This document shows, in pieces, positions 17,736 through 64,000 of a stretch of DNA of 64,000 nt. Made by a program: the position numbers and the translations under genes. Numbering within the stretch: the stretch's first letter is position 1; each line of letters starts with the position of its first letter. Under the pieces are notes generated by a model. The model did not search any database. It was not told the DNA's origin and saw only the letters and a list, made by a program, of their open reading frames with translations. The DNA is from an uncultured Candidatus Saccharibacteria bacterium (GTDB lineage: Bacteria; Patescibacteriota; Minisyncoccia; Phycocordibacterales; PALSA-1337). Where the stretch lies: contig CAYXPQ010000001.1 of NCBI GenBank assembly GCA_964467225.1, forward strand, positions 6,812 through 70,811. Direction: 5' to 3'.

Positions 17736-17737
17736 GA

Positions 17738-18195: not shown

Positions 18196-18879
18196 TTATG
18201 CGAATGGTTCCCTATATGGGTCCACTGTGTATGGTTTTGGTGGTTGATTTTCTTTTTTATCAACAATTGTTTTTTTCTTGGGAGCAATTTCTACTACTTT
18301 TTTCTCTTCGACTTTCTGTGCATTGTTTATCGGGGTTGTTAATAGATGGTCAATCATTGTTGGATGCTGAGCATCTTCTATTTCTTTCAATATAGCTTCC
18401 CTATCTAGGTTGGTGTCATTATATTGAGGCGAACTTGAAGGTGGGGCTTTTGGTTCAATATGGAACTGCCCTTCTTGCTCAAGTTTCGTAGGACCAAAGT
18501 TTTGTTTTTGAATTTGTTGGGATGTGGGTGGTGGGGGTGGGGTGGGTACCGATAAGGGTTTATTGGAATCTGATAAGAATTGATTATCGATACTGCTTTG
18601 TTGTTTGTCCTGAATTTTGGATTGTATTGGTTTTAGTATTAATGTGTTAACATCAGCTACAATTTTGCTTGATAATTCATTATTAATTTCTAGCCTTTTA
18701 TTTATGTTGTTTTGAAAATCATTTGCATGGGTAAAACCCATTATTACATCTTGAATTTCCGCTGCTAATTCATCCTGTAAATCAAGCATTAAGTTGTATT
18801 TTCCAGCAATCAATGAAATATTTTTATATGTTTCATTTGAATATGCTATTTCTTTAATGTAATTTTTTAGTTGATCCAT
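18196..18879 (-). CDS. Hypothetical protein with Pro-rich low-complexity C-terminal half
   Basis: 227-aa ORF containing a PTPPPPPTSQQ stretch. Confidence 0.5.
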   Translation of the reverse strand: MDQLKNYIKEIAYSNETYKNISLIAGKYNLMLDLQDELAAEIQDVIMGFTHANDFQNNINKRLEINNELSSKIVADVNTLILKPIQSKIQDKQQSSIDNQFLSDSNKPLSVPTPPPPPTSQQIQKQNFGPTKLEQEGQFHIEPKAPPSSSPQYNDTNLDREAILKEIEDAQHPTMIDHLLTTPINNAQKVEEKKVVEIAPKKKTIVDKKENQPPKPYTVDPYREPFA

Positions 18880-18886
18880 AATAATT

Positions 18887-20827: not shown

Positions 20828-20829
20828 AA

Positions 20830-22404
20830 TTATTGACTATTTCTACATCTACCCAGCTGCGTCTTGGAATCGTTTATGTATGGACCTGCGGAAATTTTTG
20901 TTTGATCTAACTGTGTTCTAGCGTCCTGGATATCCTTTGCACTTGTCAGACTCATTGTTGTTGAAAGTTGAGATAATTTCTGGCTTGCAACATTTAGTTC
21001 TTCCAGAGTTCTTGCAGTATTTGCTGTACTTCTGATCTCTCTCATTGTTGTAAGTCTCTTCTCTGCTTCTTCAAATTGAGCTTTAAGTGTGTCTCGTGTT
21101 GGTGTTATTTTTAGAATCGCAGCTTTTACTTCATTTAATCTTGCGGAGAAGGCGCTTAGGTCCCAGTATGGTCGGTTAGGTGTAGTTAATAGTGTATTGA
21201 AACAGGCTACTGCGTCTTTGTAGTCAGTATCTATAGAGTTATATATTTCATAGCTCTGCTTCTTCAAGTCTACATAGTCAGTTGTTAGCTTCAGTGGATT
21301 TTCTATAGTACTCAATACTTGTGTTCTTAGAGTTTCGATTTGCGAAGACGAACCTTCACCATTATTTAGATTGTTTATATAAGAACTACTATCTCCTGGA
21401 CCACTTCCACTTACTGAGCCAAGTCCCTTTGTTAATACTTGGGTAATCAATTGTGCTACTAAAGCATTTACTATTTCATTTATTTCATCTGCAAGCTCAA
21501 GTTGTCTTAGACCAGATCCAAGTTGATTCTCAAGTGAACTAGAAATAACAGATCCTGGTGTTTGGATTTCACATGTTTGATGTTTACTAACTTCTTGTTT
21601 TGCATAGAACTCCTCTTCACTTCCCTTTTCTGCTTTATCCAAATCTTGTTTAGCGTACAATGCTTCCTCAGATCCATCATCTTTACACTTTTTCCATGAT
21701 AAGAATCCCTTGCCTTGATTAATCTCTTCTCTTTGTTGAGATCTGGCACTTGCAACTCTCCAAGATAGATCTGCTTCAGCTTGCAAATATGCACCATAGA
21801 CATTGTTCTGGGGTTCGGTAGACAGACTGACGAAAGCTGGCCAGCCTCCTTGTTTGAAATCCCCAGCTGTAAATCCATTTATTGATGCATTCTCAACTGC
21901 ATTTTTTGTATTTTTGATTATTGTATTTAGGGTACAAGTATATCTTTTCATCACGTTTGGGTGATATTTAAACCTTAGTGCAATTTGAATATCGATGCTA
22001 AACGGTGAACAAAGACTTGTGAGTGGACCTCCATATTTTGCAAGAAATGCACCTGTTACTTGATCTGCTACATCAAGGAAGAATGCTCCAGGATTCTGTA
22101 GAAATGAAGGACTTCCTTCGAAACCAGAATTAATCCAATTAACAACACTTTGAGTCATTTGCCTTACGACTTGTTTTACAAGAACATTAAGCAATCCGTC
22201 CAATACGAATTCCTTTAATTGGAGCGAGTATGTTGAAGCGCTTGAAACAACACTGCTAGCAGCTGTAATAGTGTTTTGGGCTATGTTACCAGCGTCTATG
22301 GTTGCTAGTTGAGCATTAGCTTTTTGAGGAATAAAAATCTGTGGAATAATAAAACTTATTATGAGTATTCCGGATATTAATTTTTTAATAAAAGAAAAAT
22401 TCAT
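20830..22404 (-). CDS. Secreted coiled-coil hypothetical protein
   Basis: Signal peptide. Internal duplicated (L/F)YAKQ(D/E)..K motif. Confidence 0.55.
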   Translation of the reverse strand: MNFSFIKKLISGILIISFIIPQIFIPQKANAQLATIDAGNIAQNTITAASSVVSSASTYSLQLKEFVLDGLLNVLVKQVVRQMTQSVVNWINSGFEGSPSFLQNPGAFFLDVADQVTGAFLAKYGGPLTSLCSPFSIDIQIALRFKYHPNVMKRYTCTLNTIIKNTKNAVENASINGFTAGDFKQGGWPAFVSLSTEPQNNVYGAYLQAEADLSWRVASARSQQREEINQGKGFLSWKKCKDDGSEEALYAKQDLDKAEKGSEEEFYAKQEVSKHQTCEIQTPGSVISSSLENQLGSGLRQLELADEINEIVNALVAQLITQVLTKGLGSVSGSGPGDSSSYINNLNNGEGSSSQIETLRTQVLSTIENPLKLTTDYVDLKKQSYEIYNSIDTDYKDAVACFNTLLTTPNRPYWDLSAFSARLNEVKAAILKITPTRDTLKAQFEEAEKRLTTMREIRSTANTARTLEELNVASQKLSQLSTTMSLTSAKDIQDARTQLDQTKISAGPYINDSKTQLGRCRNSQ

Positions 22405-27447: not shown

Positions 27448-28968
27448 TTAAATACTCTTCTGCCTGTACTGTATTGCTTCTAGTACATGTTCCCTTTTAA
27501 TATTTGGTGAGCTATCTAGATCAGCTATTGTTTGAGAAAGTTTTATTATTCTGTGATAGGATCTGGCGGACAAGTTGAGTCTTTCAGAAGATTCTTTCAA
27601 TAAAACACTTGCTTCACTATCAATTTCTATAAGATTCTCTATATCTGATAATGACATCTCACTATTGTATTTTTTATTTATACTTCTATTATCAAATCTT
27701 GTTGATTGGATATTTCTAGCTTTCTCTACTCTTTTTTTAATTAAATTAGAACTCTCATTTGCCTCTGATCTAGTTAATAGCTTGTCATAATCAACTTTTG
27801 AAACAGGAATCCACATATCAATTCTATCTACTATTGGTCCTGATATTCTTTTGCTATAGTCATTTATATCTCTATCATTGCAGGTACAGCGTTTTGTATT
27901 TCTAAAACCACATGGACACGGATTCATGGAAGCTATTAGAATACATTTTGCGGGAAATGTTAATGAGCCTTTGGCTCTAGAAATAGTTATTTTATGGTCT
28001 TCTAATGGTTGTCTCAATGATTCTATTACTTTACGATCAAATTCCGGAAATTCATCCAGAAACAGAACCCCTCTATGTGCAAGCGATATTTCTCCAGGTT
28101 GAGGATATGGTCCTCCACCAACCAAAGATACATAAGAAGCAGTATGATGAGGAGATCTAAAAGGTGGTCTCAATATTGGCTCTCTTAGAATTTTTGATAT
28201 TGAATACAGGCTAGTTACTTCTAGTATTTCACCTTCAGTGAGATTAGGTAAAATTGTTTGAAATGCTCTAGCTAGCATGGTTTTGCCTGTTCCTGGAGGT
28301 CCGTACATAACAATATTATGTCCCCCACTAGCAGCAATTTCTAATGCTCTCTTTGCTATTTCTTGACCTCGTATCATATTAAAATCTAACTCAATGATCT
28401 CTGGTTTATGAATGATTTCACTCTTCTCTAATTTTTTAATTTTGAAATTATCTTTTGTTAAATGATTTATAACTTCATTCAATGTTTTGCATGGATATAT
28501 ATCTATTCCATTCACCAACCCAGCTTCGATAGAATTCTCAATCGGTATATAAACTTCTCTATAGCCTAATTCTTTAACACCCTTAATTAGGGGTAATACT
28601 CCACTCACTCTTCTAATTTCTCCATTTAATGATAATTCACCAAGAAATATCTTATCATTTGGATTAAAACAAATATCTGTACTAGCCATAAGATAAGCTA
28701 ATGCCATTCCGAGATCAAAAGATGGACCTTCTTTCCTAATATCTGCTGGAGCAAGCGATATAACAACTTTCTGGTTTTTTTGTTTTGGGGAAATGTAGCC
28801 ACTATTCTTTATAGCTGCGGAGATTCTGTCTTTTGATTCATCAATGGCTTTGTCTCCTAATCCAACTATTGAAAATGAATGTAAACCATTTGATAAATCC
28901 ACCTCAATACTAATAATATGTGCACTTAATCCATATAATTGAGCACTAAAAATTTTTGATATATTCAT
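27448..28968 (-). CDS. comM: YifB/ComM family Mg-chelatase-like AAA+ ATPase (competence protein ComM)
   Basis: N-terminal Lon-like domain. Walker A GPPGTGKT. C-terminal ChlI domain. Confidence 0.9.
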   Translation of the reverse strand: MNISKIFSAQLYGLSAHIISIEVDLSNGLHSFSIVGLGDKAIDESKDRISAAIKNSGYISPKQKNQKVVISLAPADIRKEGPSFDLGMALAYLMASTDICFNPNDKIFLGELSLNGEIRRVSGVLPLIKGVKELGYREVYIPIENSIEAGLVNGIDIYPCKTLNEVINHLTKDNFKIKKLEKSEIIHKPEIIELDFNMIRGQEIAKRALEIAASGGHNIVMYGPPGTGKTMLARAFQTILPNLTEGEILEVTSLYSISKILREPILRPPFRSPHHTASYVSLVGGGPYPQPGEISLAHRGVLFLDEFPEFDRKVIESLRQPLEDHKITISRAKGSLTFPAKCILIASMNPCPCGFRNTKRCTCNDRDINDYSKRISGPIVDRIDMWIPVSKVDYDKLLTRSEANESSNLIKKRVEKARNIQSTRFDNRSINKKYNSEMSLSDIENLIEIDSEASVLLKESSERLNLSARSYHRIIKLSQTIADLDSSPNIKREHVLEAIQYRQKSI

Positions 28969-29054
28969 ATATATCAATATACATAATTAGGTATTAAGAA
29001 AAGCTTAAGAAAAGTGTCAAAAATTACCATTTCACAATAAAAAAGTGAAAATGG

Positions 29055-39637: not shown

Positions 39638-39709
39638 GCGCCCGTGGTGAAATGGATATCATACCGGTCTTCGGAACCGTTGTTGGGGGTTCGAGTCCCT
39701 CCGGGCGCA
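39638..39709 (+). tRNA. tRNA-Arg (anticodon TCG)
   Basis: Cloverleaf with 7-bp acceptor gcgcccg/cgggcgc. Anticodon loop cttcgga. T-loop ttcgagt. CCA not encoded. Confidence 0.8.
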
Positions 39710-39768
39710 CAAAATTAGGGTGTTTTGATTTGGTAAAAAATTAAAACTAATATATAATGACTCAAATT

Positions 39769-39839
39769 GCGGGTATGGTTTAGTGGTAGAATGCGTCCTT
39801 GCCAAGGACGAGGCGGGAGTTCGATTCTCCCTACCCGCA
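39769..39839 (+). tRNA. tRNA-Gly (anticodon GCC)
   Basis: Acceptor gcgggta/tacccgc. Anticodon stem cgtcc/ggacg with loop ttgccaa. T-loop ttcgatt. Confidence 0.85.
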
Positions 39840-39909
39840 CAGAAATCTTAAAGTACAGTCTTTTTATAAGAGTCATTTGTCCACTATTATTCACAAATAC
39901 CCTTAAAAC

Positions 39910-39930
39910 TGTGGATAACTCTGTGGATTA
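39910..39930. promoter_or_regulatory. Tandem DnaA boxes TGTGGATAA / TGTGGATTA upstream of yraN
   Basis: Perfect box at 39910-39918 and a one-mismatch copy at 39922-39930. Confidence 0.45.
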
Positions 39931-40010
39931 TGTTTATTAGACATAAATAATATGGCTTATAATCGTGTCTTTTGTCTTTTTTAATAGTGTTAATTAATTT
40001 ATGAATAATC

Positions 40011-40379
40011 ATGAATAATAGGGAAAAAGGTGATATAGGTGAAGGTATTGCATGTAACTATTTAAAAAATAGGGGATATCTGATACAAAATAGAAATTAT
40101 CGAGAGAAATATGGTGAAATTGATATTATCGCTGTAAAAGATAATATTCTTCATTTTATTGAGGTAAAATCAGTCTATATAGACAAGAGTCATGATAAAT
40201 ATAGGCCAGAGGAGAATGTTCACGATCTCAAACAGAGAAAATTAAGAAGGATTATTCAAGTATATATTAATAGGAACAATCTATCCAATTCAGAATTTAG
40301 ATTTCATGTTATAACAGTAAAAATAGATAATTTTAACAACAAATGTTATATCAAAATGTTAGAAAACATTATTCTGTAG
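40011..40379 (+). CDS. yraN: YraN family (UPF0102) endonuclease
   Basis: GDIGEGIACNYL...GEIDIIA...IHFIEVKS matches the YraN consensus. Confidence 0.85.
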   Translation: MNNREKGDIGEGIACNYLKNRGYLIQNRNYREKYGEIDIIAVKDNILHFIEVKSVYIDKSHDKYRPEENVHDLKQRKLRRIIQVYINRNNLSNSEFRFHVITVKIDNFNNKCYIKMLENIIL

Positions 40380-40415
40380 AGTTTTTTTATATGCTGTGTT
40401 AGTATGATGGAATAT

Positions 40416-40488
40416 CGGAGCGTGGTGTAACGGCTAACATGCTTCTTTTGGGAAGAAGTGACTCCGGGTTCGAATCCCGGCGCTCCGA
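40416..40488 (+). tRNA. tRNA-Pro (anticodon TGG)
   Basis: Acceptor cggagcg/cgctccg. Anticodon stem cttct/agaag with loop tttggga. T-arm ccggg-ttcgaat-cccgg. Confidence 0.85.
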
Positions 40489-40493
40489 CAAGT

Positions 40494-40916
40494 ATGAAGA
40501 AAATATTAAATTTTTTCGACAAATTTGAAGATCGTGTAAGAGGTAATCTAAGTAGGTATCCTATTTTATATACAATAATTGGAAGTATAGCTATAGTTTT
40601 GTTTTGGAGAGGGGTGTGGCATACAGCTGATATGTTACAAGAACAGGGTGGAATCTTAGGATTTATATTCTATGAGCCAGTAAACATGATTTTGGTTGTT
40701 ATTGTGCTTCTGTCTACTGGTCTTTTTGTATCATATTTTATTGGAGATACAATTCTTATTTCAGGTCTTAAACAACAAAAGAAGACAACAGAGAAAACAG
40801 AGAAGGAGATAAAGGATGAAGAGGGAAGACTAGATGAAATAAGGGATTCTATTAAAGAATTGAAGAGTGAAGTTGAAGAAATAATAGAAGTAATAGAAAA
40901 AGTGGAAAAAAAATAG
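40494..40916 (+). CDS. Two-TM membrane protein with charged coiled-coil tail
   Basis: Start reset to MKKILNFF after the tRNA-Pro. 140 aa. Confidence 0.55.
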   Translation: MKKILNFFDKFEDRVRGNLSRYPILYTIIGSIAIVLFWRGVWHTADMLQEQGGILGFIFYEPVNMILVVIVLLSTGLFVSYFIGDTILISGLKQQKKTTEKTEKEIKDEEGRLDEIRDSIKELKSEVEEIIEVIEKVEKK

Positions 40917-40950
40917 AATTCTTGCTAGTATAGATTTTGTTGAAATATAT

Positions 40951-41021
40951 GCGGGATTAGTTTAGTGGTAAAACTACAGTTTTCCAAACTGTTGTCGGGA
41001 GTTCGATTCCCCCATCCCGCA
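40951..41021 (+). tRNA. tRNA-Gly (anticodon TCC)
   Basis: Acceptor gcgggat/atcccgc. Anticodon stem acagt/actgt with loop tttccaa. T-loop ttcgatt. Confidence 0.85.
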
Positions 41022-50357: not shown

Positions 50358-52106
50358 ATGCACATAGAAGATTCACAACTAGATAAGTTTATTTTAGATT
50401 CTAATCTAATATCCAAATCTGATTTAGACGAAGCTGAGAAGCAAGCTAGGGAAGAGAATAGACGCTTGGGTGATATTCTTGTAAGTAGTGGCAAAATTAC
50501 TGAAGACAATTTGCGAAGGATGCAAGCTTATGTGCTGGGCATACCTTTCGTGGATCTTAAAAATAGGAAGATACCTTTTGAGACCCTATCAATGATTCCT
50601 GAGCCTGTGGCTAGAAATCATAGTATTGTCGCGTTTAAAAAAGATGATGGAATGTTGGAGGTGGCAATGCTTGATGTAGAAGATCTTTCTGCAATTGATT
50701 TTGTAAAAAAGAAGGTAAATTTAAAGATTCTACCTAGACTTACTGATTCTGAATCAATAAAAAACGTAATAATTCAATACCAAAAGAGTCTTAAAGCAGA
50801 ATTCGGTGATATTATACAGAAAGAATCAGAAACACTAAAAACTATAACAGAAGAAGCGGGGGAATCGTTCTCTGAAGCAGACTTAAAAAAGATTGCAGAG
50901 GATTTGCCTGTGGTAAGAATCGTAGATACATTGCTTAAGCATGCAATATTACAGAACGCATCGGATATTCACATTGAGCCAATGGATGATCAATTATTAG
51001 TTAGATATAGAATTGATGGAATGCTTCATGATGCCATGGTTCTTCCTAAGAGTGCAGAGCCATCTATAACTGCTCGTATAAAGGTGCTATCTAATTTGAA
51101 ATTGGACGAGAAGAGGTTGCCTCAAGATGGTCGTTTTAAGATCGATATGAATAATGAGAAAGTTTCTTTCCGTGTTTCTCTACTCCCAACTTATTATGGA
51201 GAGAAGACAGTAATGCGTCTTCTACGAGAAAGCGTATCTGGTTTTACATTGGAATATCTCGGTTTCCATGGAGAGGGACTAGAAAGGATTCATCATGCTA
51301 CTACTCTTACAACTGGTATGATACTTACAACAGGACCTACTGGATCAGGTAAAACGACAACTTTGTATACTATTTTGGATATTCTTAATCAGCCAGATGT
51401 AAATATTTCAACAATTGAAGATCCTATTGAATATCAAATGAAAAGAATAAATCAAACTCAGGTTAAGCCTGAAATTGGTTTTACTTTCTCAGTGGGATTG
51501 AGGACTTTAGTTAGACAAGACCCTGATGTTATTATGGTGGGTGAGATTCGAGATAATGAAACGGCCTCATTGGCGGTTAATGCTGCTTTAACAGGTCACT
51601 TGGTTCTATCAACACTTCACACTAATAGTGCTGCTGGTGCAATTCCTAGATTGATGGATATGAAAATCGAACCATTTTTACTTGTTTCAACAATAGATAT
51701 AATTATTGCACAGAGACTTGTAAGGAAGCTTTCAGAACATAAAGAAAAATATTTCTTAAGCAAGACTGAAATAGCAACATTATCAAAAACAGTTGATCTG
51801 GATAGGGTGTTGCAAGCATTAAAGGATGAGAAGGTGATTAAGAGTGCGGATTCTTGGGAGAAAATTCCTTTCTGGAAGCCTATTGCATCAAAGGACGATG
51901 ATGGTTATAAGGGAAGATTAGGTATACACGAAGTTCTGAAAGTTACACAAAGTATCAAAGATTTGATTATAAAGGGGGCAACTACTACTGAAATTGAAGA
52001 ACAAGCAAAGAAAGAGGGGATGTTAACAATGATTGAAGACGGAATATTTAATGCAGTAAAAGGTATTACAACAATTGAGGAGGTATTAAGAGTTATTTCA
52101 GAATAA
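50358..52106 (+). CDS. pilB: Type IV pilus assembly ATPase PilB/GspE family
   Basis: N-terminal GSPII_E_N domain. Walker A GPTGSGKTTT. Asp box, Walker B and His box present. Lacks the C-terminal tetracysteine. Confidence 0.9.
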   Translation: MHIEDSQLDKFILDSNLISKSDLDEAEKQAREENRRLGDILVSSGKITEDNLRRMQAYVLGIPFVDLKNRKIPFETLSMIPEPVARNHSIVAFKKDDGMLEVAMLDVEDLSAIDFVKKKVNLKILPRLTDSESIKNVIIQYQKSLKAEFGDIIQKESETLKTITEEAGESFSEADLKKIAEDLPVVRIVDTLLKHAILQNASDIHIEPMDDQLLVRYRIDGMLHDAMVLPKSAEPSITARIKVLSNLKLDEKRLPQDGRFKIDMNNEKVSFRVSLLPTYYGEKTVMRLLRESVSGFTLEYLGFHGEGLERIHHATTLTTGMILTTGPTGSGKTTTLYTILDILNQPDVNISTIEDPIEYQMKRINQTQVKPEIGFTFSVGLRTLVRQDPDVIMVGEIRDNETASLAVNAALTGHLVLSTLHTNSAAGAIPRLMDMKIEPFLLVSTIDIIIAQRLVRKLSEHKEKYFLSKTEIATLSKTVDLDRVLQALKDEKVIKSADSWEKIPFWKPIASKDDDGYKGRLGIHEVLKVTQSIKDLIIKGATTTEIEEQAKKEGMLTMIEDGIFNAVKGITTIEEVLRVISE

Positions 52107-52110
52107 GCAA

Positions 52111-53337
52111 ATGTCACATTTTATTTATAAAGCTAAAAAATCTACTGGAGAAATATATAAAGGTGAAAAAGACGCTAATGATCGTTATGAACTTTATAAA
52201 ATATTAAAAGAATCTGGTGACGAGGTTATTGATGTAAAAGAGAAATTTGGTAGTAGAATATCAATAAAAAGTAGTTTTAATTTCTCATTCTCACTCTTTG
52301 GTAAAGTTAAAGCTCAAGAAAAAATAAATTTTGCAAGAAATCTAAGCTCTATGATTACTGCAGGACTTTCTATGTCTAGAGCATTGTCAGTTATTGAAAG
52401 ACAATCAAAAAATAAATTTTTTCAAAAAATAATTTCTTCATTACAGACAGAAATAACAAAAGGTAAGACCTTAAGTGATGCTATGTCTATGTATAAAAAT
52501 GTTTTCTCTCCACTTTTTATATCTATGGTCTCAGCAGGAGAGAAGAGTGGTACCTTAAATGATTCGCTAAAAATAGTTGCTGACCAATTGGATAAGAATT
52601 ATGTTTTACAGAGAAAAGTGAAAGGGGCAATGATGTATCCAGCGATAATACTTTTTGCAATGGTACTTATCGCTATTTTGATGTTGACATATATAGTGCC
52701 GACCCTAATGAAGACATTTACTGAGTTGAAACTAGATTTGCCTATGTCGACCAAGCTTATACTTTTTACAAGTAAACTATTAATCAATAACGGATTATTT
52801 GTCTTAATTGTAGTTGTTATTCTTATTTCTTTATTTGTTTTGTGGTCAAAAAAAGAAGGAGGTAAGAAAGTAATTCATCTTTTTATATTAAAAATTCCCA
52901 TAGTTGGTAATATTATCAAAGAGGTTAACTCTGCAAGAACCGCAAGGACACTTTCTTCATTGTTAAGTTCAGGAGTAGATGTTGTTGAATCGGTCAAAAT
53001 AACAAAAGATGTTATTCAGAATATTTATTACAAAAAAATCCTGGATAAAGTAGGATTAGCAATAGAAAAAGGAGAACCGATATCAAAGATTTTTACTGAA
53101 AACTCAAATCTATATCCAATTTTCCTTGGAGAAATGATAAATGTAGGTGAAGAAACTGGTAAGATTGGAGAAATGCTTCATGGTGTAGCTATATTTTATG
53201 AAGATGATGTAGAACAGAAGACAAAGGATATGTCTACTATTATAGAACCATTCTTGATGATTATAATTGCTGCTGTGGTGGGATTTTTTGCTGTTGCGAT
53301 GATTTCACCTATGTATTCACTTGTAAATGTTATATAA
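52111..53337 (+). CDS. pilC: Type IV pilus inner-membrane platform protein PilC/GspF family
   Basis: Two T2SS-F repeats and 3 TM helices. 408 aa. Confidence 0.88.
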   Translation: MSHFIYKAKKSTGEIYKGEKDANDRYELYKILKESGDEVIDVKEKFGSRISIKSSFNFSFSLFGKVKAQEKINFARNLSSMITAGLSMSRALSVIERQSKNKFFQKIISSLQTEITKGKTLSDAMSMYKNVFSPLFISMVSAGEKSGTLNDSLKIVADQLDKNYVLQRKVKGAMMYPAIILFAMVLIAILMLTYIVPTLMKTFTELKLDLPMSTKLILFTSKLLINNGLFVLIVVVILISLFVLWSKKEGGKKVIHLFILKIPIVGNIIKEVNSARTARTLSSLLSSGVDVVESVKITKDVIQNIYYKKILDKVGLAIEKGEPISKIFTENSNLYPIFLGEMINVGEETGKIGEMLHGVAIFYEDDVEQKTKDMSTIIEPFLMIIIAAVVGFFAVAMISPMYSLVNVI

Positions 53338-55099
53338 AATCTTACAAAGAAATAAAGGATTTACTTTAATTGAAACCTTAGTTGGTGTGGCAGTATTTCT
53401 AGTTATTTCTACAGCAGTCTATCAAGCCTATGTAAGTCTTTTTAATCTTATTAGCTTAAATCAATATAAGATTGTGGCACTTAATTTAGCAAATGAGCAG
53501 TTCGAGATTGTAAGGAATCTATCTTATGCAAATGTTGGTATTCCTGGAAGTATTCCGAGTGGAAATATTCCACAAGTTCAAAATATTAATAGATCAGGGA
53601 TAGATTTTGTGGTAAGAACAACAATAAGAAATATCGATCAACCTTTTGATGGTACTATAGGTGGAATACCAAACGATACTTCTCCTGCAGATAATAAAAT
53701 GGTTGCTGTAGAAGTTAGTTGTCCTACTTGCGTAAATTTCTTTCCTTTAACATTGACAACAATAATAGCCCCCAAAAATCTTGAAACTGCTTCAGTTAAT
53801 GGAGCTTTATTGATTAAGGTCTTTGATGCAAATGGAGTTCCTGTTTCTGGTGCAAATGTATCAATAAGAAATTATCAAGCAACCACGACCATTGCTATTG
53901 ATGATATGACAAATTCAAATGGAGTCCTACAAATTGTAGACGTACCACCTGGAATAGAAGCATATGAAATATCTGTATCAAAAGCAGGGTATTCTAGTGA
54001 TAGAACTTATCCAAATGGAGCAATTGGCAACCCTACTCCTAGTAAACCACATGCAACTGTAATTGTTCAACAACTAACCCAAGTCAGTTTTTCGATTGAT
54101 AAATTGAGTAGTATTGAATTTAATAGTGTTACCAGTGATTGTATTGCTATACCAAATATTGACTTTGCTTTGAAAGGTGCAAAGCAGATTGGAACAAGTG
54201 TTTATAAATTTAATAAAAACTTATCAACCAATGGGACGGGTGTTTATTCAAGTAGTACTATTGAATGGGACTATTATACTGTTACTGGTATAGACTCAGC
54301 ATATGATATTGCAGGAATCAACCCATTAAATCCAATTAGTCTAAATCCAAATGTTAGTCAAAATGTTCTACTAATTGTTGCTCCTAAAGATCCTAAAGCA
54401 TTGCTGGTTACTGTTAAAGATAATTCTACATTATTACCACTTACTGATGCAACTGTGAGATTGAGGAAAGGTGTAGCTTTTGATGAGACTCAAATTACTG
54501 GTAGAGGATCAATCAATCAAACTGATTGGTCTGGTGGCGCATACTCATTTAATGATGGAAATATTGAAGTGGCAGATCCGATTGGAGATCTGAATTTATT
54601 AAAAGTTTTTGGACTATATAATTTAGGTGGTACGATAGAATCTACTACAATTGATACAGGATCACCAAGTAATTTTTATAATTTAAGCTGGTTACCGATA
54701 GATCAACCTGTAGGAGCAGGAACAGATAGTGTTCGTTTTCAATTTGCTACCAATGCTATTATTACAGGTACAACAACATGGGATTATAAGGGTCCAGATG
54801 GAACTTCAGCAAGTTATTATACGGTCTCAAATTCACCAATATCTTTAGCACATAACGGTGATAGATATGCTAGATATAAAATTTTCTTAAATACACTTAG
54901 TGCAACAAACACGCCTAATATATCCGATGTTTCATTTACTGTTACATCATCTTGTACACCCCCGGGACAAGTTATTTTCTCAGATTTAGATAGCGGTACA
55001 TATATTTTGGATGTAACAAAAACAGGATATAACCCATTTAGTCAAAATGTGGATTTAAATAGTGATTGGCTTGAACAAGAAGTAATTTTGAGTCAATAA
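53327..55099 (+). CDS. Large prepilin-type N-terminal cleavage/methylation domain protein (590 aa)
   Basis: Class III signal: ...KGFTLIETLVGVAVFLVI. Confidence 0.75.
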   Translation: MLYKILQRNKGFTLIETLVGVAVFLVISTAVYQAYVSLFNLISLNQYKIVALNLANEQFEIVRNLSYANVGIPGSIPSGNIPQVQNINRSGIDFVVRTTIRNIDQPFDGTIGGIPNDTSPADNKMVAVEVSCPTCVNFFPLTLTTIIAPKNLETASVNGALLIKVFDANGVPVSGANVSIRNYQATTTIAIDDMTNSNGVLQIVDVPPGIEAYEISVSKAGYSSDRTYPNGAIGNPTPSKPHATVIVQQLTQVSFSIDKLSSIEFNSVTSDCIAIPNIDFALKGAKQIGTSVYKFNKNLSTNGTGVYSSSTIEWDYYTVTGIDSAYDIAGINPLNPISLNPNVSQNVLLIVAPKDPKALLVTVKDNSTLLPLTDATVRLRKGVAFDETQITGRGSINQTDWSGGAYSFNDGNIEVADPIGDLNLLKVFGLYNLGGTIESTTIDTGSPSNFYNLSWLPIDQPVGAGTDSVRFQFATNAIITGTTTWDYKGPDGTSASYYTVSNSPISLAHNGDRYARYKIFLNTLSATNTPNISDVSFTVTSSCTPPGQVIFSDLDSGTYILDVTKTGYNPFSQNVDLNSDWLEQEVILSQ

Positions 55100-57911: not shown

Positions 57912-58982
57912 ATGAAAAGCATAAAAGATATAAAGAAGCTTGATGGGGTAAGAGTTCTTGTCAGGCTAGATTTAAATGTACCTATTCAAAATAATGTTAT
58001 TGTAGATGATTTTAGAATTAAAAAAGCTTTACCATTAATTCAGTATCTTTCGGATAACGGTGCAAATCTTATCCTAATTAGTCATATTGAAACAGTTGAT
58101 AATCCCACTTTAAAGCCAGTTGCTGAATATCTAATTAAATTAGGTATTGATTGTGCCTTTGAGAAAAATTATAGAAATGTTTTAAATAATAAAAGTAAGA
58201 TTATTCTTCTTGAAAATTTAAGAGAGTATGAAGGGGAAAAGAAAAATGATAAGAAATTTGCTAAAGAACTAGCTTCTCTCGCTGATATTTATGTAAATGA
58301 AGCATTTTCTGTATCTCATAGAGATCATGCTTCCGTCTCAGCTATTACGGAATTTATACCAAGTTATGCTGGATACCAATTTGAAGAAGAAATAAAGCAT
58401 TTAAGTACTGCTTTTAACCCTGAACATCCTTTTCTATTTATTCTTGGAGGTGCAAAATTTGAGACAAAATTTCCATTATTAGAGAAATTTATTGATTCGG
58501 CGGATAAAATATTTGTAGGAGGTGCACTTGCAAATAATTTCTTCAAAGAAATGGGACAGGATATAGGTGATTCTCTTGTTTCTCCAGAAAATTATGACTT
58601 ACAAAGATTTATTAATACAAAAAAGATTGTTCTACCCATAGATAGTCTAATAAAAGACAAAAAAATAATGGATGCAAGTACTAAGACTGTTGAATTATTG
58701 AAACAAGAGATAGATAAAGCAAAATATATTTTGTGGAATGGTCCACTTGGTGCATATGAATCTGGATATAGAGCTTCTACACTTCAACTTGCAGAAATTT
58801 TAGCAGATGCAACGGCTAGAGGCGTAAAGACTATAGTTGGTGGTGGTGATACTCTAGCTACTATAGCAGAATTAAAATTAGTAAATGGTTTTACTTTCGT
58901 TTCAACTGGCGGAGGGGCAATGTTAGATTATCTTGCAAAAGGTACATTACCTGGAATTGAGGCATTAGAAAAGGGGCTATAA
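57912..58982 (+). CDS. pgk: Phosphoglycerate kinase (short form)
   Basis: RxDLNVP N-terminal motif and C-terminal GGGA/ATP-binding region. 356 aa. Confidence 0.9.
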   Translation: MKSIKDIKKLDGVRVLVRLDLNVPIQNNVIVDDFRIKKALPLIQYLSDNGANLILISHIETVDNPTLKPVAEYLIKLGIDCAFEKNYRNVLNNKSKIILLENLREYEGEKKNDKKFAKELASLADIYVNEAFSVSHRDHASVSAITEFIPSYAGYQFEEEIKHLSTAFNPEHPFLFILGGAKFETKFPLLEKFIDSADKIFVGGALANNFFKEMGQDIGDSLVSPENYDLQRFINTKKIVLPIDSLIKDKKIMDASTKTVELLKQEIDKAKYILWNGPLGAYESGYRASTLQLAEILADATARGVKTIVGGGDTLATIAELKLVNGFTFVSTGGGAMLDYLAKGTLPGIEALEKGL

Positions 58983-59336
58983 CATTGAGACAATTTTGTC
59001 TCTATTAGTTTTGAAATCTTTGGGATCTCCGGTGGTTCCTGGCTTTGGGAATATCCATATATGTGCATGTGGTACTTCTTCTCCTATGACCTTGCTCCAT
59101 ATTTCTTCTGTACCAAATGCTTTACGCTGTGCTAATGCTATCTTTCTAGCCACTTCGAAATATTCGCCGCAATTTGGTACATCCCATACCCATCTATGAT
59201 GATTCTTTGGAACTATTAGACTATGTCCTGGTGAGCGAGGATCTATACTTAGAAATACTATAAAATCTTTATCTTCATGCACAATATCCGCTGGCACTTC
59301 CTTTTTAATTATTTTACAAAATATGCAGTTGTTCAT
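58977..59336 (-). CDS. HIT family hydrolase
   Basis: CIFCKII start and histidine triad region HxHxH-like (NHHRWVW). Confidence 0.85.
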   Translation of the reverse strand: MNNCIFCKIIKKEVPADIVHEDKDFIVFLSIDPRSPGHSLIVPKNHHRWVWDVPNCGEYFEVARKIALAQRKAFGTEEIWSKVIGEEVPHAHIWIFPKPGTTGDPKDFKTNRDKIVSML

Positions 59337-59374: not shown

Positions 59375-61057
59375 ATGCCCAAATATCAGATCAGAGAATT
59401 AAGAGACGGTGACTTTATTGATAATCTACTTTTTCACCGTGGAATCAAAACCGCAGAAGATAAAGAAAGATTTTTGAATTTAAATTATAATGAGCAAACA
59501 CATGACCCTTTTCTTCTAAAAGATGCCGAAAAAGCAGCAAAGAGAATAATTAAAGCAATAGAAAATAATGAAAAGATAGTTATCTATAGTGATTATGATG
59601 CAGATGGAATCCCAGCAGGGGTTATTTATCACGATTTATTTAAGAAAATAGGATTTAAGAATTTTATAAATTATATACCTCATAGACATGATGAGGGATT
59701 CGGACTAAATATTGATGCTGTAAATCAGTTCATAGAAGATAGGGTAAACCTAATTATTACTTTGGATTGTGGTATTTCTGATAATGAGGCAGTAAAATTG
59801 GCTCAAGATAATGGAATAGATGTCATAATAACCGATCATCATGAGCCACATGAAGAATTACCAAAAGCTTATGCAATAGTTGATCATAAACAAAAAGATT
59901 GCAATTATCCAGAAAAGATACTTTGTGGTTCTGGTGTAGGATATAAGCTAATACAGGCAATTTTAAAAATTAATAGATTTAATTTGAAAGAAGGTCAAGA
60001 GAAATGGTTCTTGGATATGGTTGGAATCGCTACATTGTCAGATATGGTACCTTTGGTGGGGGAGAATCGTGTTTTTGCTAGTTATGGACTAACTGTTCTA
60101 CGCAGAAGTCCAAGAAAGGGCTTAGTTAGACTATTGAATCATTTAAAAATCAATCAAAGATATTTGAATGAAGATGATATTGGGTTCATGATTACTCCGA
60201 GAATCAATGCAGCATCTAGAATGGGAGTGCCGATGGACGCCTTTCATCTACTTTCTACTGAAAGCGATGATGATGCTAATAAATTCACAGAACATTTGGA
60301 TAGAATTAATAATGAAAGAAAAGGCACAGTCGCTTCTCTTGTAAAAGAAGTTAAAAAGATAATAAATGAAAGACATAGGGAAAATCCAAGAAATGTAATT
60401 GTTGTTGGAAATCCAGAATGGAAGCCGTCGCTACTGGGGCTTGTTGCAAATATTTGTGCCGAGGAATTCAGCAAGCCTGCATTCATATGGGGTAGGGATG
60501 GAGATAATATCATCAAGGGTTCATGTAGATCAGGCGATACCGTAAGTGTAGTGGAGATAATGAAGAACGTACCAGATGGAGTGATGATTCAATACGGTGG
60601 TCACTTCGCTTCCGGAGGCTTCGTCGTAAGTAATGAGGCAATACATCACTTTGAGGATCATCTAAATTCTGCTTTTGACAAATTAATTAAAGAGAATAAT
60701 GATATTGAGCCAGATTATATTGATTATGAATTAGATTTGGATCAAGTGAATTGGGAGATCTATTCTCAAATTGAGAAATTGGCACCATTTGGTATCGGTA
60801 ATGAAAAGCCATTATTTATTTTTAAAGATATAAAAATTGTAGGAATAAAGCATTTTGGCAAAGAACAAAATCATTTGGAATTAAATTTTAAAAGCAAAAA
60901 GGGAAATAAAATTAATGCTATGGGATTTTTTATGAATTCAGGCAGTTTTGCAAAAGAATTAAAAGTTGGAATGAATATAGATCTTGTTGCTACACTTGAA
61001 AAATCTATGTTTAGAGGTCGAGCAGAGCTAAGATTGAGAATTGTTGATATACTATAG
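59375..61057 (+). CDS. recJ: Single-stranded-DNA-specific exonuclease RecJ
   Basis: DHH motifs (DYDADG, ITDHH) and DHHA1 domain. 560 aa. Confidence 0.9.
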   Translation: MPKYQIRELRDGDFIDNLLFHRGIKTAEDKERFLNLNYNEQTHDPFLLKDAEKAAKRIIKAIENNEKIVIYSDYDADGIPAGVIYHDLFKKIGFKNFINYIPHRHDEGFGLNIDAVNQFIEDRVNLIITLDCGISDNEAVKLAQDNGIDVIITDHHEPHEELPKAYAIVDHKQKDCNYPEKILCGSGVGYKLIQAILKINRFNLKEGQEKWFLDMVGIATLSDMVPLVGENRVFASYGLTVLRRSPRKGLVRLLNHLKINQRYLNEDDIGFMITPRINAASRMGVPMDAFHLLSTESDDDANKFTEHLDRINNERKGTVASLVKEVKKIINERHRENPRNVIVVGNPEWKPSLLGLVANICAEEFSKPAFIWGRDGDNIIKGSCRSGDTVSVVEIMKNVPDGVMIQYGGHFASGGFVVSNEAIHHFEDHLNSAFDKLIKENNDIEPDYIDYELDLDQVNWEIYSQIEKLAPFGIGNEKPLFIFKDIKIVGIKHFGKEQNHLELNFKSKKGNKINAMGFFMNSGSFAKELKVGMNIDLVATLEKSMFRGRAELRLRIVDIL

Positions 61058-61060: not shown

Positions 61061-61540
61061 ATGAAAATTTCAATTTTTACTGATGGATCTTCAAGAGGTA
61101 ATCCAGGTCCTGGAGGATGGGGAGCTATTATATTGGATAATAATAATATCAGGGAAATCGGAGGGAGAGAAGATGTGACTACAAATAACAGAATGGAATT
61201 GATGGCTTGTATTAAATCTTTAGAGAGTATTTCGCCCACTTCAGCAATAGTTCTGTATTCAGATTCTCAATATGTAATAAAGGGTATGACAGAATGGATA
61301 GAAGGCTGGCAAAGGAAGAATTGGAAAAATTCTCAGAAGAAAGACGTGTTGAACAGAGATCTATGGGAGAAAATGCTTGAAGTTTCAAATGGTAAGAATA
61401 TTGAATGGAAATATGTTAAAGGTCATGCCGAAAATCCAGGAAATAATCGTTGTGATGAAATCGCCACAAGTTTTGCGGATAACGAGCCAACAAAATTGTA
61501 CGATGGACCTATTGACTCATACAGTATAAGAATTGTGTAA
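61061..61540 (+). CDS. rnhA: Ribonuclease HI
   Basis: FTDGSSRGNPGPGGWGAI motif. Confidence 0.92.
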   Translation: MKISIFTDGSSRGNPGPGGWGAIILDNNNIREIGGREDVTTNNRMELMACIKSLESISPTSAIVLYSDSQYVIKGMTEWIEGWQRKNWKNSQKKDVLNRDLWEKMLEVSNGKNIEWKYVKGHAENPGNNRCDEIATSFADNEPTKLYDGPIDSYSIRIV

Positions 61541-61609: not shown

Positions 61610-62944
61610 ATGAACAAAAAAATAAATATAGTTATCATTTTGATTTTAATAGCAATTCTCATTTTTCGATTCTACTTTGCATTTAATATTGATAATACAG
61701 ACTTGATAAAAAAATATTCAGGTCAAAATATTGAAATAAAAGGGATAATAATAAATGAACCACAAATAAAAGATTTCAATCAAGCGTTTAACGTTAAGAC
61801 TGACAAATTTATCACCAAGGTTACAACAGATAGGTATATAGAATATAATTACGGTGATAGGATTAGTTTAAATGGTAAAATTAGCACTCCAAGAAATTTC
61901 CAAAGTAACGGTGGAAGAACATTTGATTATATTAATTTTCTATTAAAAGATGGAATTGTTTTTGAAATGAAAAAACCATCAATTAAATTTGAGGGTAGAA
62001 ACGAGGGAAAATTTATTTCAAAAAATCTTTTTAAATTTAAACAGGCTTTCCTCTATAATCTCAAAAAGGTTTTGGGTGAACCTCATGCTGCTCTGGCAGG
62101 TGGACTTGTGGTAGGGGAGAAAGGAGCTCTGGGTAAAGAATTAATAGATGATTTCAGGAAATCTGGACTGATACATATCGTAGTTCTGTCTGGTTACAAT
62201 ATTACAATTGTGGCGGATTCGATAAGAAGAATACTTTCATTTCTACCTAGGGTAATTGGGATTATTCTCGGAGGATTAGGAATATTGTTTTTCGGAATTT
62301 TGGTAGGTGGTGGCGCTACTGTTATTAGATCATGCATCATGGCGATCATTGCACTGTTCGGTTCGTTGATTAGGCGAGACTATAATGTTGGCAAGGCTTT
62401 ATTTGTGGCAGGAGTTTTGATGTTGATTCAAAATCCATTAATTTTGCTTTATGATCCTTCTTTTCAATTATCTTTTCTAGCAACTCTCGGTCTTATATTT
62501 CTTTCTTCTCCAATTGAGAATAAATTAAATTTTGTTACTGATACTTTCGGTATTAGAGGACTCATTGCCTCTACACTCGCAACTCAAATATTCGTATCGC
62601 CATATATACTCTATATGATGGGACAATTATCAATAATTGGAACTATTGTAAATATTCTTGTATTACCAATAATCCCTATAACTATGTTTTTTGTTGCTGT
62701 GACTGGGTTAATCGGTTTTATAAGTGAAGGTATTTCTCAGATTTCTGCTTGGGTTTCACATCTGCTACTTTCATATGAATTATTTATTGTGAAATTCTCT
62801 GCATCACTTTCATTCTCATCAATTCAATTACCGAAATTTCCTTTCTCAATAGTTGTTGGATTTTATTTAATCTATTTTGTAATGCTTGTAAAATTGCCTT
62901 CAACCCTCTGCCAATTTAAGTTTTGGAAGAAATCTTCAACGTAA
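61610..62944 (+). CDS. comEC: ComEC/Rec2 family DNA internalisation channel protein (membrane domains only)
   Basis: N-terminal OB/DUF4131-like region and polytopic competence domain with HIVVLSGYNI motif. No MBL domain in this ORF. Confidence 0.8.
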   Translation: MNKKINIVIILILIAILIFRFYFAFNIDNTDLIKKYSGQNIEIKGIIINEPQIKDFNQAFNVKTDKFITKVTTDRYIEYNYGDRISLNGKISTPRNFQSNGGRTFDYINFLLKDGIVFEMKKPSIKFEGRNEGKFISKNLFKFKQAFLYNLKKVLGEPHAALAGGLVVGEKGALGKELIDDFRKSGLIHIVVLSGYNITIVADSIRRILSFLPRVIGIILGGLGILFFGILVGGGATVIRSCIMAIIALFGSLIRRDYNVGKALFVAGVLMLIQNPLILLYDPSFQLSFLATLGLIFLSSPIENKLNFVTDTFGIRGLIASTLATQIFVSPYILYMMGQLSIIGTIVNILVLPIIPITMFFVAVTGLIGFISEGISQISAWVSHLLLSYELFIVKFSASLSFSSIQLPKFPFSIVVGFYLIYFVMLVKLPSTLCQFKFWKKSST

Positions 62945-63423
62945 TTTTTCTTTCCGGATGGTTGATAGTCTGCAACATAAGAATGTTCCCACATATCAAG
63001 AGCGAGTATTAGTGCACAATCCTGGAGCTGACTTATGTGTTGTTCTTCAACCCAAATATTAATTAATAAATTTTCTTTTTTATCATAATAAAGCATTGCC
63101 CAACCAATACCTCTTGTTAATGCTAATGATTTGAAGGAAGCTAACCAAGCATCGTATGAACCAAAATCTTTCTCTATTTGTTTTTTTAAGGGACTATTGT
63201 CTGATAGGGGATTGGGAGTTCCTTCAAGTGATGAGAAATACACTTCATGATTTCTCATTCCATTGTATTCAAATCCTAAGCGTCTTATGTCTTGCTTGCC
63301 ATCTAGAGTTTCATTTAAGTTTTTTACATATCCGGCATATAACTTCAAATGCTCTTCGATTGTCTTGCTTGAAATTCCTTTTAAATTAGCAATATTAAAT
63401 TTTTTTTCGGTGAATTTATTCAT
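62872..63423 (-). CDS. sodA: Fe/Mn superoxide dismutase
   Basis: Fe/Mn SOD metal-ligand motif D..WEHSY. 183 aa. 3' end overlaps the comEC 3' end antisense by 73 nt. Confidence 0.88.
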   Translation of the reverse strand: MNKFTEKKFNIANLKGISSKTIEEHLKLYAGYVKNLNETLDGKQDIRRLGFEYNGMRNHEVYFSSLEGTPNPLSDNSPLKKQIEKDFGSYDAWLASFKSLALTRGIGWAMLYYDKKENLLINIWVEEQHISQLQDCALILALDMWEHSYVADYQPSGKKNYVEDFFQNLNWQRVEGNFTSITK

Positions 63424-63437
63424 ATAACAATTTTATC

Positions 63438-64000
63438 ATGAAAAATAAAAAGCTATACATAATAATATTTATTTTAATTATCTCAGGCTATCTCTCATTT
63501 TATTTATATAAATGGGAATTTCGCGAGCGAGTATTTGGAATTTATTTTTTTAGTTTGAATAGAGGTCGATCAATTTTCATGAGAACAGCAGAAAATAAAA
63601 CAATACTTGTAGGTGGAGGACAGAATGCAGAGGTTATTAGAGAAATCACAAAGGTCACTCCTTTCTATAGAAGACGAATTAATAAATTAATAATTCCAAG
63701 CGCAAATGCGAATCAGATCGGCGGGCTAATAGAGATAGTTAGCAGATATGAAATTGATGAAATAATAATTCCAAAAATAATGTCAACAAGTACAGTCCTT
63801 TCAGAATTAAAAAAAGTTATAAATAGAAATAAAATTCATGTTATTGAGGTTGTAGAAGAAGATGAAATTGAAATAGAAAAAGGCTTAGAAATTAGAATTC
63901 TTTTCCCTAATGAAAATTTTAAATATAATAAAACAAGTTTGCCGGAATTAGGATTGAGAATCGATTATAAAAATACTTCTTTATATTTGATTGGAAATTT
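63438..64000 (+). CDS. Metallo-beta-lactamase-like domain protein (ComEC C-terminal domain homolog), 5' partial; degenerate metal-binding motif
   Basis: Open frame from ATG at 63438 to the window end. TM helix then TILVGGGQ...LIIPSANANQIGGL resembles the ComEC MBL domain, with HxHxDH replaced. Confidence 0.55.
   Translation, partial: MKNKKLYIIIFILIISGYLSFYLYKWEFRERVFGIYFFSLNRGRSIFMRTAENKTILVGGGQNAEVIREITKVTPFYRRRINKLIIPSANANQIGGLIEIVSRYEIDEIIIPKIMSTSTVLSELKKVINRNKIHVIEVVEEDEIEIEKGLEIRILFPNENFKYNKTSLPELGLRIDYKNTSLYLIGN

Follow-up and report, generated by a model that had tools for sequence, protein, structure and literature searches.

Separate genes for the ComEC channel and for a ligand-free relative of its metallo-β-lactamase domain flank an antisense superoxide dismutase gene in a clade of Patescibacteria

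We have found that ComEC is encoded in two pieces near the end of a 64,000-nucleotide stretch of DNA from an uncultured Candidatus Saccharibacteria bacterium (GenBank assembly GCA_964467225.1, contig CAYXPQ010000001.1, positions 6,812 to 70,811 of the forward strand; this whole stretch is referred to here as the window). One gene, comEC, encodes the membrane channel and ends after its transmembrane (TM) domain; it is followed on the opposite strand by a gene for an Fe/Mn superoxide dismutase (sod) and then, on the strand of comEC, by a separate gene for a TM-anchored protein that resembles the C-terminal metallo-β-lactamase (MBL) domain of ComEC and has lost all of its metal ligands (Table 1). 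We consider it probable, though well short of certain, that the locus is a two-gene ComEC, in which a channel subunit and a pseudo-nuclease anchored through the counterpart of TM11 reassemble and the dead module acts non-catalytically. ComEC is the universal gateway for natural transformation, and recent structures and biochemistry give its MBL domain an essential job, that of degrading the non-translocated strand. The locus amounts to a natural separation-of-function experiment; it speaks for a role of the MBL module, other than catalysis, on which selection can act, and relatives graded from intact through partly decayed to fully decayed motifs let that role be tested.

The first gene encodes a ComEC that lacks its nuclease domain. 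Within its 444 residues, DUF4131 (PF13567) matches residues 6-121 (E=1.7e-10, 41.3 bits against a cut-off of 31.6) and Competence (PF03772) matches residues 166-427 (E=1.3e-47, profile positions 1-265 of 270); a Pfam scan of the open reading frame (ORF) gave no Lactamase_B. The protein passes the TIGR00360 model for the ComEC N-terminal part (ComEC_N-term; 73.3 bits, cut-off 36.5) and fails TIGR00361, the model for full-length ComEC/Rec2 (81.1 bits, cut-off 190). It stops after TM10, with no MBL domain on the same polypeptide, and aligns with residues 143-436 of the 801-residue solved ComEC 30bt_A (E=2.7e-14) and also with 9vc6_A. Hydropathy shows a single N-terminal TM helix ahead of the OB fold (DUF4131); the Competence domain follows, and the tail at the C-terminus is positively charged. 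The invariant motifs of the Competence domain are kept, and the ratio of nonsynonymous to synonymous substitution rates (dN/dS; here and below by the Nei-Gojobori method against the three closest genomes) is 0.06-0.10. We note that in the clade with a dead MBL partner the channel subunit is 444-470 residues long and has one TM helix before the OB fold, where canonical ComEC has three, and that in relatives with an intact MBL partner (among loci L094-L128) ComEC is 486-565 residues long, with some 45-130 extra N-terminal residues.

The second gene runs off the window, and we completed it from a sequence that extends beyond the window end (L001). There the ORF is 253 residues long (L001:1893-2654, ending at the window equivalent of 64199) and beyond it come a hairpin terminator, a NUDIX gene on the antisense strand and rpmB. 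The protein opens with the positively charged stretch MKNKK ahead of its single helix. Pfam, applied to the 187-residue fragment in the window, found no Lactamase_B (PF00753) even at E<=1 and only a spurious match to SPC25 (E=0.098); in precomputed Pfam annotation the full-length entry (P0001) and 117 of the other 119 listed homologues carry no domain, PF00753 appearing only on P0115 and P0117. TIGR00361 matches the single sequence weakly, over profile positions 441-563 (E=0.0036). It is a profile of the family (43 members), not Lactamase_B, that reveals the homology: the profile matches ComEC 30bt_A at E=1.1e-11 over chain residues 514-746, in an alignment that begins in the TM helix preceding the MBL domain, and matches the isolated ComEC MBL domain 9ic4_A at E=4.8e-10. 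An AlphaFold2 model computed on the family alignment (pLDDT 94.3, pTM 0.89) finds the same domain, 9ic4, as its best Foldseek match in the PDB (E=2.2e-16, TM-score 0.75), with further matches to other MBL-fold phosphodiesterases (Pce/CbpE) and to RNase J. On this model the protein is predicted to have the αβ/βα MBL fold of the ComEC type. Its family comprises more than 120 close homologues of 170-300 residues, mostly about 250-260, none of which is a fused ComEC; the few that carry a name from their source are called 'competence protein ComEC', 'beta-lactamase superfamily II metal-dependent hydrolase' or hypothetical Patescibacteria proteins.

What this protein has lost is the catalytic site. 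In a residue alignment to ComEC MBL domains, none of the seven metal ligands of motifs 2-5 is kept (Table 1). The segment PSANANQIGGL aligns column for column with the canonical motif 2, and its divergence goes far beyond chance, because none of the 120 closest homologues has a His in the motif-2 columns. The chain stops about 16 residues past the strand that follows motif 5 and precedes loop 2, with no Phe there. Because all seven ligands and apparently also the pin-loop-2 segment are lost, we take the view that the MBL-like protein is not a Mn-dependent nuclease for the non-translocated strand. It could in principle still be an enzyme, a hydrolase or nuclease acting through non-canonical residues or with a different cofactor: the former active-site loops are conserved, E210, R44 and R103 are invariant and E27, E69 and E170 nearly so, and 13 of the 43 family members have a His at position 213, as four have an Asp at position 187. 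We regard such an activity as very unlikely, since neither at the old site nor elsewhere does the family have a conserved cluster of His, Asp or Cys that could hold one or two metals, since Lactamase_B fails to detect the protein, and since in canonical ComEC the mutations that lower nuclease activity in vitro all abolish transformation, with the exception of S728, which is not a ligand (PMC12455585). The most conserved stretches of the family (LNRGRS, GGGQN, NKTSLPE and GNLSKTIQ) lie in or near the former active-site loops, and the alignments hint that the old pocket may still be used for binding. The MBL-like gene has a dN/dS of 0.10-0.25; the dead module is under purifying selection, somewhat relaxed in comparison with comEC and sod.

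The earlier note on this DNA, made from the sequence alone, had claimed that the 444-residue ORF ends after the TM domain, that sod on the opposite strand overlaps its 3' end by 73 nucleotides, that the ORF starting at 63438 has a TM helix and an MBL-like fold, and that PSANANQIGGL stands in place of the HxHxDH motif. All of this is borne out by the searches described above and by the analysis of sod below, which is a genuine Fe/Mn superoxide dismutase gene.

Table 1. Positions of the features of the comEC locus (window numbering) and replacements in the MBL motifs
Feature	Position	Strand	Canonical	Here	Basis or remark
comEC channel subunit, 444 aa	61610..62944	+			Pfam and NCBIfam matches
comEC/sod tail-to-tail overlap, 73 nt	62872..62944	both			stop to stop
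Fe/Mn superoxide dismutase (sod), 183 aa (552 nt)	62872..63423	-			Sod_Fe_C (PF02777), E=8.5e-24
Spacer between divergent start codons of sod (-) and MBL-like gene (+), 14 nt	63424..63437	.			sequence
MBL-like gene (putative pseudo-nuclease subunit), first 187 of 253 codons	63438..64000	+			ATG start; runs off window
N-terminal TM helix of MBL-like protein, residues 6-24	63453..63509	+			hydropathy; counterpart of ComEC TM11
MBL motif 1			DVGQGDA	SLNRGRS	Asp to Ser, Asp to Arg
MBL motif 2	63696..63728	+	THPDADHIGGL (THP[HD]xDHIGGL)	PSANANQIGGL	His to S88, His/Asp to N90, Asp to N92, His to Q93
MBL motif 3			LHP	LFP	His to F156
MBL motif 4			ADI / TGD	GNL	Asp to N187
MBL motif 5			HHGS	YNSA	His to N213
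recJ (DHH/DHHA1/RecJ_OB)	59375..61057	+			Pfam; usual upstream neighbour of comEC, not part of ComEC
RNase H gene	61061..61540	+			Pfam RNase_H, E=1.9e-44; conserved directly upstream of comEC

The arrangement is not an artefact of assembly. In an exact-protein look-up, comEC turned up in Logan assemblies of two different sequencing runs. One of these, L001, matches the window at every one of the 2455 nucleotides that they share (100% identity), the assembly from the second run shows the identical comEC/sod junction, and the 253-residue MBL-like protein is also present on a 180-kb NCBI contig. No frameshift can fuse the two ORFs, because a complete sod lies between them on the other strand, and this intervening antisense gene and the identity of independent assemblies rule out a frameshift or mis-assembly that would restore a fused ComEC. 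That the MBL-like gene is a pseudogene is ruled out by its dN/dS and by the stable length and motifs of more than 120 homologues; identity within the family ranges from 43 to 86% at constant length. The earlier note had left two readings side by side, one of them a disrupted comEC. Recent damage to comEC, or a frameshift artefact, with loss of DNA uptake, now seems scarcely credible to us. Broken copies do exist in the clade, comEC itself being divided into two ORFs at L060:3623-4957, L066:1481-2814 and L071:4983-6413 (these are either real pseudogenes or assembly errors). At the locus studied here, however, independent assemblies agree, a full antisense gene separates the ORFs, the layout is kept in more than 100 loci, dN/dS is far below 1 for comEC, sod and the MBL-like gene alike, and the invariant motifs of the Competence domain persist. 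The note's other reading, a separate and catalytically dead subunit, gains support from the conservation of the pair in those same loci, from purifying selection and from the loss of every ligand. Two points of the note call for a change of emphasis: the split is a clade-wide and ancient trait that is not peculiar to this genome, and the 73-nucleotide overlap has an ordinary cause in the constraint on the C-terminus of the dismutase. Because the split layout is conserved over the whole clade, we view it as a working variant rather than a broken gene.

The breadth of this conservation emerges from several searches. When one genome per species was scanned, the MBL-like protein was recovered at 40 loci (43-86% identity), and every contig of sufficient length has the genes arranged as recJ (+), RNase H (+), comEC channel (+), sod (-), MBL-like (+) and rpmB (encoding L28; usually -). 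A second scan, of metagenomes, took the channel subunit as its seed, which presupposes no MBL layout, and gave 80 loci at 38-84% identity. The order recJ-rnhA-comEC-sod(-)-MBL-L28(-) is found in about 40 species-level genomes and in most of the 80 metagenome loci, and none of the 114 loci with a comEC ORF of at least 400 residues carries a fused MBL, the longest such ORF having 565 residues. A profile search of 1.84 billion representative proteins returned 157 matches below 1e-30. The best 150 of these are about 100-400 residues long, none of them of fused-ComEC length, and most are 230-396 residues long with an alignment that starts within the first 30 residues. The matches fall into three groups by motif: the family itself (PSAxxxQIGGL), a large second degenerate group (ATNxxGKNVSGL) and, more distant, a group of standalone proteins with intact motifs (DVGQGDA, THPHxDHxGGL, TGD and HHG).

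Relatives at the same locus show how the present state may have arisen. Both L043, whose MBL partner has intact motifs, and L046, whose partner is degenerate, have the recJ-rnhA-comEC-sod(-)-MBL-rpmB context, and in L045 a degenerate MBL ORF overlaps comEC directly by 34 nucleotides, without sod. We classified 100 loci with an MBL ORF by motif state and by the presence of sod between comEC and MBL. Where the motifs are decayed, sod lies between the two genes in 72 loci and was not detected there in seven; where they are intact, the corresponding numbers are eight and eight, and five of the latter eight overlap comEC by 4-20 nucleotides (L094, L099, L105, L115 and L123); where they are partial, with the first His changed to Asn, the numbers are three and two. 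L117, one of these partial forms, has an MBL ORF that overlaps comEC by 20 nucleotides, and intact motifs coexist with the sod wedge in L043, L107, L116 and others. In a neighbour-joining tree of the channel subunit, which is a distance tree only, intact-motif lineages are basal, and all decayed forms fall into a single large clade, to which one partial form is sister. These comparisons suggest a single origin of motif decay, with the channel and MBL genes co-diversifying, and they suggest as the most economical history that the fusion was absent or had been split into overlapping ORFs, that sod was then inserted and that the catalytic site was lost last. On this history sod would be a passenger that came to lie between the halves ahead of the decay of the active site. 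We also observe standalone ComEC-type MBL genes with intact motifs that sit beside yebC and ruvC rather than comEC (L047 and L048). Since the MBL gene is relocated there and absent nearby in other lineages considered below, the partner gene can evidently relocate or be lost. Records with the same locus are mostly titled 'uncultured Candidatus Saccharibacteria' (TPA_asm metagenome-assembled genomes), and others are titled Taylorbacteria, Nomurabacteria, Paceibacteria or Paceibacterota; the Saccharibacteria title on these related records looks like a pipeline default and unreliable for taxonomy.

The position of the break bears on whether the two products could work together. In its cryo-EM structure, ComEC has a periplasmic OB fold preceded by three of its 11 TM helices, and the last helix, TM11, is joined by a flexible linker to the periplasmic MBL domain (PMC13539106). 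Since both the tail of the channel protein and the N-terminus of the MBL-like protein are positively charged, we place the break in the cytoplasmic loop between TM10 and TM11, and homology together with the positive-inside rule predicts that each half has its canonical topology. With a break at that point, both polypeptides should be able to insert independently and in the canonical orientation. We propose that comEC makes the DNA channel subunit, with its TM helix, extracytoplasmic OB fold and Competence domain, that the second gene makes what was formerly the C-terminal part of ComEC, TM11 followed by an extracytoplasmic MBL-fold domain, and that the two would reassemble in the membrane as a ComEC-like machine. 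Because the dead MBL is under purifying selection, its role is most likely non-catalytic and exerted at the channel entrance, where it might position or brace the OB fold or bind DNA. Degradation of the other strand would then be left to another nuclease, as it is to EndA in Streptococcus pneumoniae, or might not be needed. ComEC-dependent transformation has been demonstrated in another Patescibacteria lineage (PMC10633639), and the presence of PilB, PilC, pilin-like and ComM-like genes in the window makes a functional uptake pathway plausible.

A different way to account for the same selection is that the MBL-fold protein has left ComEC altogether and taken on a new, unrelated function, its position beside comEC being no more than inherited gene order; it could then be a membrane-anchored extracytoplasmic binder that uses the old pocket for phosphate or a nucleotide. 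Loss of all ligands and of loop 2 would suit such a relic, as would the new invariant polar or basic residues (R44, Q62, R103, T117, S118, S189, Q193 and E210), the fact that the most conserved stretches, FKFNKTSLPEL and GNLSKTIQK, are specific to the family, a dN/dS above that of comEC, and the lineages in which a standalone MBL is found away from comEC (L047) or is not seen within 5 kb. We nevertheless think it rather unlikely. Adjacency and orientation to comEC hold down to about 40% ComEC identity, with or without sod, in compact genomes that otherwise vary around the locus, where the NUDIX gene and other inserts come and go; the MBL motif types track the tree of the ComEC channel; and the TM11-equivalent helix is kept together with a conserved juxtamembrane segment.

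Several points weigh against a reassembled two-gene ComEC. The comparisons above establish the homology and the fold, the ligand loss, where the split falls, the synteny, the selection and the succession of states seen in relatives; the physical assembly of the channel and MBL-like subunits, the non-catalytic role and the use of another nuclease are things that we infer. When isolated, the canonical MBL domain does not bind DNA to a measurable extent (PMC12455585). Pin loop 2 (R688/F689/F691 in Legionella pneumophila), the one non-catalytic element of the MBL domain found to be indispensable for transformation (Stedman et al., PMC12455585), appears from the alignment to be absent here, and with pin loop 2 apparently gone the most obvious structural role would be unavailable. 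Conservation within three residues of the former ligands is only slightly higher than in the rest of the domain (0.75 versus 0.68, p=0.04). We found neither a candidate replacement nuclease nor a second MBL in the 64-kb window, whose sole EEP-family protein has no N-terminal extension and looks cytoplasmic. Lastly, some related lineages have no MBL gene within 5 kb downstream of comEC, which means that in those lineages the partner is either dispensable or encoded elsewhere; L095, L101, L103, L106, L110, L113, L118, L119 and L124 make up a sub-clade of this kind.

The gene between the two halves encodes an unusually compact superoxide dismutase (183 residues) that matches Fe/Mn enzymes in the PDB down to E=5.7e-19. 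Its segment LDMWEHSY aligns with LDVWEHAYY of 1ma1, which sets D143 and H147 against metal ligands; H59 aligns with a ligand His, and H25 was placed by inspection only. The N-terminal domain Sod_Fe_N (PF00081) scores under its cut-off (E=0.009), and the N-terminal helical hairpin falls some 20 residues short of its length in solved Fe/Mn enzymes. The dN/dS of sod is 0.03-0.07. Coding constraint on sod explains the overlap with comEC, which is exactly 73 nucleotides long in 37 of 41 loci, at ComEC identities down to about 55%. Within the overlap the two genes are in a register that sets third codon position against third codon position; read in antisense, the dismutase C-terminus NYVEDFFxNLNWExVEGNF gives the ComEC tail KLPSxxSQFxFxKKSST, and the comEC stop codon TAA sits opposite dismutase Asn-Tyr codons; the overlap is exact because the conserved C-terminus of the dismutase constrains the opposite strand. 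Four lineages have overlaps of other lengths (38, 44, 59 and 79 nucleotides), and in three of them the ComEC tails are unrelated, the tail of L043 (79 nucleotides, in the same frame register) being still recognisably similar. Since the tail is dictated by the dismutase and differs where the overlap differs, it is best seen as a tolerated cytoplasmic extension that is not independently conserved. We considered a special function for the exact 73-nucleotide overlap and set it aside, the tail being a wobble-to-wobble antisense of the dismutase C-terminus.

The nesting of the three genes could also have a regulatory meaning, one that would add to the two-gene model: transcription from comEC into the MBL-like gene would run antisense to the whole of sod, and vice versa, and the wedge might be retained because this couples the stoichiometry of the uptake subunits to the response to oxidative stress in the manner of an excludon. 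The comEC stop and the MBL-like start are 493 nucleotides apart, a distance shared by 10 other loci and by the window-identical L001. The 3' ends of comEC and sod overlap and the start codons of sod and the MBL-like gene are separated only by the short spacer, so that promoters must lie inside neighbouring coding sequence or the MBL-like gene must be read through from comEC, antisense to sod. In addition, the sod wedge is kept in 83 of the 100 classified loci, and the only clear hairpin terminator comes after the MBL-like ORF. This hairpin has 9 bp, is GC-rich, lies right after that ORF and before the convergent NUDIX gene (L001:2658-2680, equivalent to about 64203-64225 of the window) and is plausibly a bidirectional terminator. 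Against such coupling, coding constraint on the dismutase already explains the length of the overlap, distant lineages have sod hundreds to thousands of nucleotides from comEC with other genes inserted, and a promoter scan of this AT-rich DNA was uninformative (22 sites against 17.3 expected); we give the idea little credence. No obvious Shine-Dalgarno sequence is seen at the start codon of either sod or the MBL-like gene, and an Rfam scan of the window found only four tRNAs, far from the comEC locus.

Upstream of comEC, recJ and an RNase H gene are found on the same strand in nearly all related loci. We also note a gene for a HIT-family hydrolase at 58977-59336 (-) upstream of comEC and the NUDIX hydrolase gene (L001:2699-3199, -) that is often found downstream. 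To judge by these annotations, recJ, RNase H, HIT and NUDIX genes form a conserved neighbourhood for the processing of single-stranded DNA and nucleotides, one that would fit salvage of imported DNA. A bolder proposal is that the clade-wide loss of the nuclease chemistry, the fold being kept as a separate subunit, marks a different kind of uptake, in which the complementary strand would not be destroyed outside the cell and both strands would be salvaged, with sod tuning the ratio of channel to pseudo-nuclease according to oxidative state. We think this improbable. If true, it would amount to a different uptake mechanism in nucleotide-auxotrophic bacteria, and it would fit the neighbouring RecJ, RNase H, HIT and NUDIX genes. 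The locus in any case bears on the question of whether ComEC serves transformation or nucleotide scavenging in these organisms.

Elsewhere in the window, type IV pilus genes occupy 50358-55099 (+) and encode a PilB-like ATPase, a PilC-like platform protein and a 590-residue protein that bears a pilin-type methylation motif at its N-terminus; part of a second ATPase, of the T2SSE kind, is found at the start of the window (58-648, +). A ComM-like protein is encoded at 27448-28977 (-), with ChlI and Mg_chelatase domains and a Lon_C-like N-terminus in Pfam; in other bacteria the ComM family acts in the recombination of transforming DNA. A same-strand run at 11403-22404 (-) includes a VirB4/TraG-like ATPase (15281-17095), a PrgI-family protein (17738-18166) and several ORFs without a Pfam match, and resembles the type IV secretion cluster of monoderm type that has been described from Patescibacteria. 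In the regions 7378-10140 (-) and 951-2978 (+), dnaA and dnaN are adjacent, with ruvB, yebC and ruvC nearby; given that adjacency, the window probably contains or neighbours a replication origin. Four tRNA genes are clustered at 39638-41021 (+), and an ORF at 40458-40916 that overlaps one of them is probably spurious.

Canonical ComEC/Rec2, as known from Bacillus subtilis and from the Neomoorella (Moorella) structures 30bt and 9ic4, has the same OB fold, Competence domain, last TM helix and MBL fold, in the same order along the DNA. The system described here differs in that these parts are divided between two polypeptides, split in the loop between TM10 and TM11 with an antisense gene in between, in that one TM helix rather than three precedes the OB fold, and in that the MBL has none of the seven metal ligands and apparently, from the alignment, no C-terminal pin-loop-2 segment. 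The best functional analogy is ComEC (CelB) of S. pneumoniae, in which an MBL that has lost most of its ligands likewise sits on a functional channel; it keeps two of the seven and relies on EndA (Baker et al. 2016, PMC5031224). There, however, the dead domain is fused to the channel, whereas here it is a separate gene with no ligands and with no EndA-like partner in the window.

That CPR (Candidate Phyla Radiation) bacteria lack the ComEC-MBL fusion has already been published (Meheust et al. 2019, PMC6744442), and proteins with DUF4131 and Competence alone, the 'DC' domain profile, are common (Pimentel & Zhang 2018, PMC6299819); the 444-residue protein is exactly of this type. Those studies scored the MBL as absent. 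In the loci described here it is still present, as a gene next to comEC whose motifs are intact in some lineages and decayed in a large clade, where Pfam does not detect it. Our findings thus correct the scoring of CPR ComEC, in that the MBL is split off, and often not visible to Pfam, rather than absent as family-based surveys conclude, and they provide an annotation for the 'hypothetical protein' of about 250 residues downstream of comEC and sod in Paceibacteria-type genomes, which is the C-terminal module of ComEC. Channels without a nuclease domain are also known from Helicobacter pylori, whose ComEC has no MBL domain and whose genome holds no close relative of the ComEC MBL (Baker et al., PMC5031224), and from the ComEC-like proteins of the Mycoplasma MAG0480 family (NF045979). 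The H. pylori protein is further predicted to have, as here, a single N-terminal TM helix before the OB fold (PMC13539106), but the clade studied here, unlike H. pylori, keeps an MBL relative next door. An MBL fold also serves as a non-catalytic subunit in CPSF100 (with CPSF73) and in INTS9 (with INTS11), and INTS9-INTS11 is among the fold matches of our model. Those proteins pair with an active MBL paralogue and carry a beta-CASP domain, whereas here neither is present (the paralogue having been sought in the window), and the likeness holds at the level of the fold only.

Searches of the full-text literature turned up neither a standalone dead ComEC MBL partner nor a sod wedge, and a dedicated survey of CPR MBL-fold genes (PMC10459063) describes no syntenic, TM-anchored, ligand-free MBL partner and no sod wedge. 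What we have found no description of, and take to be new with respect to that literature, is thus the separate syntenic gene for a TM-anchored MBL, the clade-wide loss of its ligands under selection and the antisense sod wedge. The locus belongs neither with full-length ComEC/Rec2 nor with catalytic MBL enzymes and is homologous to both parts of ComEC. It is a natural, clade-wide separation of the structural from the catalytic role of the ComEC nuclease domain, of use for annotation and for work on the mechanism of DNA uptake, but it elaborates on themes already known and is not a new kind of system.

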